A stretch of 4,888 bases of DNA from a virus (Duplodnaviria; Heunggongvirae; Uroviricota; Caudoviricetes), in the IMG/VR virus record IMGVR_UViG_2667527898_000022; one strand, given 5' to 3'. This document shows, piece by piece, positions 1 through 236 of the stretch. Below the pieces are notes generated by a model. That model did not search any database, had not been told where the DNA came from, and worked only from the letters and a program-made list of their open reading frames with translations. A program made the position numbers and the translations under genes. Position 1 is the stretch's first letter; each line of letters opens with the position of its first letter.

Positions 1-95
1 GGCTGCTTATTTGCAGCTATCCCCCCAAAGCTAATCCCCAAAAAAACGCCAGCCAGTGCAGTAGACAAAACAGTCTTTGTAAATTTCTTGCTCAT
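1..95 (-). CDS. 5' end (31 codons) of an ORF running off the left window edge; N-terminus looks like a Sec-type signal peptide; hypothetical secreted/envelope cargo protein
   Basis: Minus-strand ATG at 93-95, open to position 1 with no stop. Translation MSKKFTKTVLSTALAGVFLGISFGGIAANKQ has a basic n-region (KK..K), a ~20-residue hydrophobic core and an A-x-A-like site (GIAA). Weak SD (AGGG) upstream. Sits just outside the tail-fibre module, where lambdoid prophages carry cargo genes. Product not recognised. Confidence 0.4.
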   Translation of the reverse strand, partial: MSKKFTKTVLSTALAGVFLGISFGGIAANKQ

Positions 96-105
96 GTGGT
101 ATACC

Positions 106-183
106 CTATAAAATTATCTGTATACAAATAAAACAGTTCAACATCGGATATATAAAGAAAATCTGATGTCTCGCCGCTCTCAT
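106..183 (-). CDS. candidate 25-codon small ORF (MRAARHQIFFIYPMLNCFICIQIIL): leader peptide or small hydrophobic membrane peptide, immediately upstream of the signal-peptide gene
   Basis: ATG at 181-183 (minus) preceded by AGGAG (plus 191-195 ctcct) at 7-nt spacing; TAG at 106-108; stop lies 10 nt before the ATG at 95. Hydrophobic 18-residue stretch. Short ORFs occur by chance in AT-rich DNA, so low confidence. Confidence 0.2.
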   Translation of the reverse strand: MRAARHQIFFIYPMLNCFICIQIIL

Positions 184-198
184 GAGCTTACTCCTGAA

Positions 199-236
199 GA
201 AATTCCGAATTTTAATATAAAGTTTTTCGGAATTTC
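199..236. promoter_or_regulatory. 38-bp palindromic element: perfect 11-bp inverted arms gaaattccgaa (199-209) and ttcggaatttc (226-236) around a 16-bp AT-rich spacer carrying a -10-like TATATT on the minus strand; candidate operator/promoter for the leftward cargo operon
   Basis: Arms verified base by base. The spacer read on the minus strand is aaactttatattaaaa; TATATT is 5/6 to TATAAT and lies ~30 nt upstream of the small-ORF ATG. No good -35 found. Confidence 0.3.

Follow-up and report, generated by a model that had tools for sequence, protein, structure and literature searches.

A conserved, structured leader that may mask the start site of prophage-borne eib adhesin genes

In some Shiga-toxin-producing and commensal Escherichia coli, Eib proteins are responsible for serum resistance, immunoglobulin binding, and chain-like adherence, and their expression depends on growth conditions. 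How such a gene might be controlled is the question raised by one end of a 4,888-nucleotide (nt) stretch of Caudoviricetes DNA (IMG/VR record IMGVR_UViG_2667527898_000022; the whole stretch is referred to here as the window). On its minus strand, which carries every feature described below unless stated otherwise, a palindrome with an internal TATATT, an AGGAG sequence, and a 25-codon open reading frame (ORF) precede the ATG of a signal-peptide protein. This layout, put forward in an original prediction made from the letters alone, is present in full; the small ORF had been read as a possible leader peptide or as a small membrane peptide resembling type I toxins. Comparison of related loci places the conservation in the nucleotide sequence of the leader and not in the small ORF, and the leader may act as a structured RNA that masks the eib ribosome binding site (RBS).

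The eib identity of the locus is demonstrated by its homologues. The start codon lies at 95-93 (the gene thus begins at 95, not at 93 as first given) and opens MSKKFTKTVLSTALAGVFLGISFGGIAANKQP..., with the frame leaving the window at position 1. The first 900 bases of the window have BLAST matches of 93%–99% identity in eight phage records and in 27 of the 5,426 complete E. coli genomes searched, and in all of these matches the ORF from 95 is labelled eibA or 'YadA C-terminal domain-containing protein'. At the closest locus (L002, 99.2% identical), the eib homologue is full length at 436 codons and carries a YadA_anchor domain (PF03895, E 1.2e-16); in the window, where the gene is cut after 95 nt, the anchor and the passenger domain fall outside. 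As the original prediction had supposed, the frame is a genuine secreted-protein gene, of Eib type. A Sec signal peptide, MSKKFTKTVLSTALAGVFLGISFGGIAA, can be read from the sequence, with a basic n-region ahead of a hydrophobic core and an end resembling A-x-A, and EibA starts alike. By homology, the downstream gene is a prophage-borne eib, encoding an immunoglobulin-binding trimeric autotransporter of the YadA family.

Over the remainder of the window, the minus strand also carries genes for host-specificity protein J (C-terminal part), a tail fibre with collagen repeats, and a tail-fibre assembly protein. The order J–tail fibre–assembly gene–eib is constant across the eight phage records and 27 E. 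coli genomes. At L002, the eib homologue is followed by two small genes, a dinI-like gene, and the host gene btsS, which places eib at the prophage end. The earlier description of a separate accessory (moron-like) unit at that end thus holds, the unit lying 3′ of the tail-fibre assembly gene and of its terminator-like hairpin.

For comparison, eib-like loci were gathered from E. coli genomes ('distant' BLAST), IMG/VR contigs (DNA pattern plus protein profile), and metagenomes (protein profile). Positions −175 to +12 were extracted for the 83 loci having enough upstream sequence, which yielded 53 unique sequences; 47 of these fall into seven related leader groups, comprising A (the window's own, 19 sequences), B (7), C (2), D (8), E (9), F (1), and G (1). 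The upstream regions of three other adhesin clusters are unrelated to them. Similarity between groups begins at TA(T/C)AGTAAG (window 245-237), about 150 nt before the ATG, and further upstream the groups are unrelated; the conserved unit in front of eib is a nucleotide module of approximately 165 nt. Besides box 1, box 2, and the TTTGTATACA(G/A)A element (Table 1), the blocks common to all or most groups are an AT-rich TAWAWTTAAWTTT in the palindrome spacer, ATCAGATTTTCTTTA, and the eib Shine-Dalgarno (SD) sequence. The group A leader is almost invariant, with the coding sequence diverging from about 27 nt past the ATG.

Non-conservation of the small ORF is equally demonstrable. In the window, AGGAG (195-191) stands 7 nt before the ATG at 183-181, and the TAG stop (108-106) lies 10 nt before the eib ATG, overlapping the eib SD. 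The original prediction had proposed a search for homologous loci with a broken small ORF but a kept downstream gene; that search was run, and such loci were found. L002 has ATT in place of the small-ORF ATG, and L057 and L079 have AAGAG in place of AGGAG. Groups B and G possess no ATG at the site and group E has none or a 3-codon ORF, so that the frame does not survive as a conserved leader peptide. Same-site ORFs encoding unrelated peptides occur in groups C (22 codons, MGAEIHQIFFIHLMYFGLFVYK), D (25 codons, MKGNEVSVFLMCSDTRCSVCIQIIS), and F (17 codons, MPAKTNQIFFMNLRCGY), and the near-invariant block TTTGTATACA is translated in different frames in groups A and C. Changes to the small ORF within group A amount to five nonsynonymous and two synonymous substitutions, one start loss, and one stop-loss insertion (two variants), which is too few for dN/dS. 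The insertion, a T at about window position 109 in L034 and L078, deletes the TAG and extends the ORF to a TGA overlapping the eib ATG (ATGA). A Pfam search with the 25-residue peptide gave no match.

Judged from these sequences, the small ORF is not a conserved coding gene and is most likely an unselected by-product of U-rich, stop-poor sequence. Phe, Ile, and Leu are what U-rich sequence specifies by default, which accounts for the hydrophobicity of the peptide, a property lost in group D. The upstream AUG has a comparably simple origin: CAUG is its own reverse complement, and a strand that pairs with ...CAUG... at or beside the eib start must itself contain AUG.

Folded separately as sense RNA, each group gives the same architecture, a three-way junction in which a helix (P0) encloses two hairpins (HP2 and HP3). 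The 5′ strand of P0 lies in box 2, and the AGGAG and ATG formerly taken as the start of a small gene are better explained as belonging to this strand, which pairs with the eib start region. The paired strands differ between groups, being GCUCAUG (187-181) with CAUGAGC (96-90) in group A; AUCCUG with CAGGAU in group B; CCUCAUG with CAUGAGG in groups C and F; box 2 UACCCUUAUGAAA with start region UUUCAUAGGGUA in group D; and box 2 AUAUCCUG with start region CAGGAUAU in group E. The strands remain complementary in all six of these groups, and occlusion of the SD or AUG by box 2 is predicted in six of the seven groups, via different complementary sequences. Predicted probabilities of being unpaired are 0.00–0.09 for the AUG in group A (listed as 0.00 in all 19 variants) and at most 0.25, mostly near 0, for the SD in groups B–F. 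Shuffling of the upstream sequence gave equally strong occlusion least often in group E (at most 0.3% of trials), followed by D (1%), A (1.3%), F (8%), C (14%), B (22%), and G (71%). The leader folds range from −26 to −43 kcal/mol, and the window's own sense fold has a z score of −4.6.

Conservation of the hairpins is borne out by covariation. In an unfitted MAFFT alignment, 78.2% of cells pair in the named structure, against 34%–49% when the partners are slid by one to three columns; 11 pairs change on both sides, and none of 500 shuffles attains the observed covariation score. A covariance model (R1) built from the named structure matched each eib locus once, with the ATG as the end of every match, and returned nothing more from the 402 kb searched on both strands. 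In the R1-fitted alignment, which leans towards the model, 13 pairs change on both sides, ten of them in HP2 (for example, CAUCAGA/UCUGAUG vs GUGUCAG/CUGACAC), and 69 cells show such changes compared with 24 ± 4 in shuffles. Wobble pairs are biased to the sense strand, with G.U outnumbering A.C by 114 to 30; the imbalance is most pronounced in HP3 together with the outer stem of HP2 (68 vs 3), and in HP3 U.G or G.U occurs on the sense strand 32 times and A.C once. The compensatory changes and the one-strand wobble bias argue that the region is transcribed. As the fitted alignment leans to the model and the sequences are related, these figures are to be taken as support and not as proof.

Table 1. 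Features of the eib leader region in the window (ordered along the minus strand, 5′ to 3′)
Feature	Position	Strand	Description
Box 1	237..245	minus	TATAGTAAG; start of cross-group conservation in the alignments; TATAGT at 245-240 is another −10-like hexamer
HP1 palindrome hairpin	198..238	minus	12–13 RNA pairs; spacer with TATATT (219-214) and TAAAAT (214-209); equals the AF151091 stem_loop
Box 2	181..195	minus	AGGAGUAAGCUCAUG; contains the SD and ATG of the original prediction; aligns with GGAAUAYCCU(C/G/U)AU of other groups, which is complementary to their SD
Helix P0, 5′ strand	181..187	minus	GCUCAUG; seven Watson–Crick pairs with 96-90 in minimum-free-energy and centroid folds
Small ORF	106..183	minus	25 residues, MRAARHQIFFIYPMLNCFICIQIIL; stop TAG at 108-106; judged no conserved coding gene
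HP2, weaker outer stem	179-174/136-131	minus	predicted fold
HP2 hairpin	141..169	minus	ACAUCAGA (169-162) with UCCGAUGU (148-141); conserved U-rich loop 161-149; predicted in groups A–F
Candidate sigma-70 promoter P2	113..141	minus	TTGAAC (141-136), 17-nt spacer, GATAAT (118-113); at −46 and −23
HP3 small hairpin	115..130	minus	near-invariant TTTGTATACA(G/A)A; 130-125 pairs with 120-115; 95%–99% of cells paired
eib SD	104..107	minus	AGGG, by reading the sequence; equivalent SD wholly paired with box 2 in groups B–F
Helix P0, 3′ strand	90..96	minus	CAUGAGC, includes the eib start codon; partner of 187-181
eib-type trimeric autotransporter gene, 5′ end	1..95	minus	cut by window edge; signal peptide MSKKFTKTVLSTALAGVFLGISFGGIAA...; annotated homologues

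These observations are consistent with a structured leader RNA that masks the eib RBS and carries the small ORF as a by-product, a model in which belief and doubt are about equally balanced. Window 90-245 would then be the conserved 5′ control module of eib. A transcript begun upstream of box 2 would fold into the three-way junction, P0 closing HP2 and HP3, with box 2 pairing to the eib start-codon region and, in other lineages, to the eib SD. The occluded RBS would hold down initiation of eib translation, and release could come about through melting, a trans-acting factor, or a ribosome arriving from upstream. The wider proposal that the module of about 165 nt is an undescribed structured regulatory RNA, its 5′ strand co-evolving with the RBS of the adhesin gene and possibly also appearing as a terminated small transcript, falls a little short of an even chance.

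Transcription from upstream of box 2 has several conceivable sources. Promoter candidates were obtained from consensus and position weight matrix (PWM) scoring for sigma-70 only. Recurrent −10-like candidates are the TATAGT of box 1 (at −150) and the TATATT/TAAAAT of the palindrome spacer (at −124 and −119), and phage late transcription would also read through the leader region. For complementation, eibG has been expressed from a plasmid insert reaching 168 bp upstream of the gene, approximately the length of the conserved block, in a construct where vector promoters are not excluded (PMC13534694). The searchable papers on eibG expression define no promoter, and that literature, outside which the original eib papers lie, yielded neither a mapped promoter nor a leader for any of the eib genes.

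Several points weigh against a masking leader. P2 has the region's highest PWM score (10.4), and groups C, E, F, and G have weaker candidates at the corresponding site. This best promoter match of the window lies downstream of HP2; its transcripts would lack box 2 and the hairpins, and if P2 were the sole promoter, the RNA model would fail. Group G has no occlusion, the shuffle tests are not significant for groups B and C, and groups A and B use P0 partners other than those of groups C–F. The leader groups are themselves related sequences, for which shuffle statistics overstate independence. Only two of the 11 P0 model pairs change on both sides, making covariation support for that helix modest. 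RNAalifold applied to the MAFFT alignment recovered HP3 only, because helix registers differ between groups; named structures and the covariance-model alignment were used for this reason. Lastly, the antisense strand of the window folds nearly as stably (z −4.0), and there the A164.C146 mismatch of HP2 would become a G.U pair.

The best surviving alternative gives the small ORF a role through its translation. In the window's lineage, the 25-codon frame could be a translated upstream ORF, the peptide itself being irrelevant: ribosomes loading at AGGAG would unwind P0, HP2, and HP3, thereby activating eib translation or coupling it to termination at the UAG overlapping the eib SD, and the arrangement would be pyrBI-like if HP2 and its U-tract attenuate. 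The AGGAG falls in a predicted unpaired stretch 7 nt from the ATG, and the stop is 10 nt upstream of the eib ATG. A same-site ATG opens an ORF in four of the seven groups, with groups A and D alike in length and stop position; the ATG is kept in 18 of the 19 unique group A variants; the ATGA overlap in L034 and L078 is a classic coupling arrangement; and U-rich sequence follows HP2, reaching U8 in group B and UUUGUUUGU in group C. This explanation is nevertheless unlikely. Groups B, E, and G lack the ORF though their hairpins and eib are kept, the ATT of L002 and the AAGAG of L057 and L079 break its signals, and the most terminator-like HP2 belongs to group B, which has no ORF. The AUG of the frame is moreover buried in helix P0, and the substitutions are too few to show selection on an open frame.

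The window also resembles the pyrBI, trp, and his attenuators in having a short ORF, headed by a good SD, that spans a hairpin and U-rich tract and stops just ahead of the structural gene. Unlike in those systems, the ORF is missing in three of the seven leader groups, and the window's hairpin is a poor terminator; no run of regulatory codons was noticed in the peptides, for which no formal search was made.

A second alternative, improbable and standing behind the first, acts at the level of DNA. Here, the palindrome would be the operator of a dimeric regulator placed over the eib −10 element (TATATT/TAAAAT), TTTGTATACAAA would be a second operator in the P2 spacer, and the hairpin potential would be incidental. 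The palindrome is perfect in its dyad symmetry: its arms at 236-226 (GAAATTCCGAA) and 209-199 (TTCGGAATTTC) are 11 nt long, 100% complementary, and separated by a 16-nt spacer bearing the −10-like hexamers, and an equally good inverted repeat arises in 0.6% of dinucleotide shuffles of window 1-950 (2.7% for the whole window). The AT-rich −10-like box is conserved across groups, where it recurs as a candidate at −124/−119, and the stretch separating the −35 and −10 elements of P2 holds TTTGTATACAAA, a 12-bp palindrome that is nearly invariant. The activator genes ibrAB are reportedly required for expression of eib (Sandt et al. 2002, as cited in PMC7649339), a dependence that a DNA-level regulator would accommodate; that ibrAB might act through the leader RNA is pure speculation.

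The behaviour of the palindrome between lineages tells against an operator. It is strong in only three of the seven groups—group A, group C, and, as two sequences, part of group E—and is weak or missing in groups B, F, and G and in the majority of D and E sequences; the arms differ (GAAATTCC/GGAATTTC vs ATAAATCC/GGATTTAT, the latter pair in group E) or degrade between groups. The half-site conservation expected for a dimeric regulator is thus not found, which argues against a conserved protein operator. The candidate −35 elements for a palindrome promoter are poor. HP2 keeps its complementarity despite sequence change, and G.U pairs are strongly biased to one strand; both would be expected of RNA but not of protein half-sites. 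Readings of the conserved palindromes as LexA, Fur, or CpxR boxes were also considered and gave poor matches, as judged by eye. When one genome of each species was scanned, the exact palindrome turned up only twice, as chance hits in unrelated bacteria.

On the masking-leader reading, the palindrome is a lineage-variable hairpin, HP1, at or near the 5′ end of the module. In its spacer, the first T of TATATT varies in close relatives (CATATT, AATATT), whereas the overlapping TAAAAT (214-209) is invariant in group A. As RNA, the palindrome folds at −12.8 kcal/mol (z −4.1), and in the alignment 73% of its cells pair, against up to 64% with slid partners, which is much weaker support than that for HP2. 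Its candidacy as an intrinsic terminator in the window was rejected: the terminator scan of the minus strand was negative, CAGGAG follows the stem, and only four of the 12–13 pairs are G-C. It is not a typical terminator there because no U-tract follows; in group C, a U6 run comes after the stem. In group A, an alternative partner for the right arm GAAUUUCUU (205-197) is AAGAAAUUU (89-81), comprising eib codons 3-5; this pairing extends the occlusion when the transcript lacks the left arm, and with the left arm present the palindrome outcompetes that pairing in the predicted fold. The modelled folds hint at a switch that would depend on where transcription starts.

A third alternative, which has little probability, divides the module in two: box 1 through HP2 and its U-tract would be a separate small RNA (sRNA) or an attenuated leader begun near the palindrome, and the seed in box 2 would pair with eib mRNA made from P2. 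The layout resembles that of an sRNA, a −10-like box being followed by an unpaired seed that complements the eib SD/AUG and then by a covarying hairpin with U-rich sequence after it, and a good promoter-like site lies directly downstream. Against this alternative, the loop of HP2 is long (11–15 nt), its stem in the window is mismatched and AU-rich, the terminator scan does not call it, and group F lacks a U-tract; in addition, Rfam offers no match for such an sRNA. The remaining proposal, a functional hydrophobic membrane peptide of type I toxin kind, is essentially excluded: for all its 18-residue hydrophobic stretch and strong SD in the window, the peptide varies in sequence, length, and hydrophobicity among groups, has charged residues in the group D 'helix' (MKGNEVSVFLMCSDTRCSVCIQIIS), is absent from three groups, has lost its start codon in L002, and has neither a Pfam hit nor an antisense RNA family match in 60-330.

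With a masking leader again in view, the closest functional parallels are the ROSE and fourU RNA thermometers and the prfA leader, in which a strand in cis sequesters the SD or AUG as is predicted here; at the eib loci, the complementarity is kept across lineages. The eib fold differs from all three in being a much larger and more stable three-way junction, with no sequence similarity and no Rfam hit. The resemblance is one of working principle and not of membership. A relaxed Rfam scan of 60-330 returned chance-level matches only (E 5.6 and 7.1, below gathering, none relevant), and the scan of the whole window placed nothing in this region. The leader architecture was not found in Rfam or in the searchable literature (which excludes the original eib papers), and the eib leader motif appears to be undescribed.

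Part of the arrangement is long established. An eib cargo gene, its prophage placement, and the stem-loop have been on record since 2000. The eibA locus of prophage P-EibA (AF151091; Sandt and Hill 2000) and eibC-G resemble the window in gene order, and the eibA locus also does so in its palindrome, which BLAST places exactly on the annotated stem_loop at 3777-3814, 141 nt before the eibA ATG. Unlike the present analysis, that record annotates the stem-loop only, with no leader structure and no small ORF. The window is 93.5% identical to AF151091 over the upstream region and its coding region departs from eibA after about 27 nt, which marks it as another eib allele. Among lambdoid morons, lom and bor are like eib in being cargo located past the tail genes, preceded by a terminator-like hairpin and equipped with a control region of their own; eib stands apart in that its cargo is a trimeric autotransporter with a conserved, structured leader of approximately 165 nt.

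If the masking model is true, an undescribed leader RNA could be the point at which growth conditions control Eib levels, and a conserved leader that masks the eib start site would offer a concrete, mutable target for explaining eib regulation. For annotators, the comparison serves as a warning that the 25-codon ORF should not be called a gene. The principle of SD occlusion is well known, and general interest beyond the eib family is limited.

Signs of sequence exchange around the leader were also noted. Among L001–L006, the leader and the first 27 nt or so of eib are near-identical, after which the signal-peptide and passenger sequences diverge sharply; this pattern suggests a recombination boundary just inside eib, with the leader perhaps acting as a shared cassette handle. 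L109 is a mosaic that combines a group B leader with the SD and start of group E. An IS21-family element (ISEc12 istAB) precedes the eib leader in L004 (271-1812) and L010 (293-2595). It lies upstream of the assembly-gene remnant in the former and downstream of it in the latter, and the leader of about 165 nt is intact in both.

The 660-nt, group A-specific spacer between the assembly gene and the eib leader holds further repeats. A perfect 16-nt direct repeat, TACGAAAATTCTGTAT, occurs at 483-498 and 660-675, 177 nt apart, and has GAATTT in common with the palindrome arms; a perfect tandem 11-mer (ATGACCATTGA twice) lies at 425-446, and a 13-nt inverted repeat with 92% complementarity spans 387-426. 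Terminator-like hairpins on the plus strand number four against 0.6 expected, and include those at 578-599, 789-814, and 878-895. The hairpin at 578-599 (GGGGAGCGTGCCGTCTCCCC followed by T6) lies within the spacer and would end a transcript antisense to eib, and that at 878-895, directly after the assembly-gene stop and with A-run and T-run flanks, looks bidirectional.

Elsewhere in the window, the segment 3020-3268 (minus strand), between J (3320-4633) and the tail fibre, has the appearance of a hok/sok-like module. The Rfam 'sok antitoxin' model RF01794 matches 3109-3268 over its full length, below gathering (32.5 bits, E 1.2e-4). Just downstream, 3020-3130 encodes a peptide that over 28 residues is 96% identical to the L011 protein from the equivalent position, which is annotated as Hok/Gef family. 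The window's peptide stops early (…CEFRFRIAPF*) and may be truncated. The tail-fibre protein itself (1508-2950, minus strand) contains long collagen-like Gly-X-Y repeats, a known trait of E. coli prophage tail fibres (compare PMC3368898).

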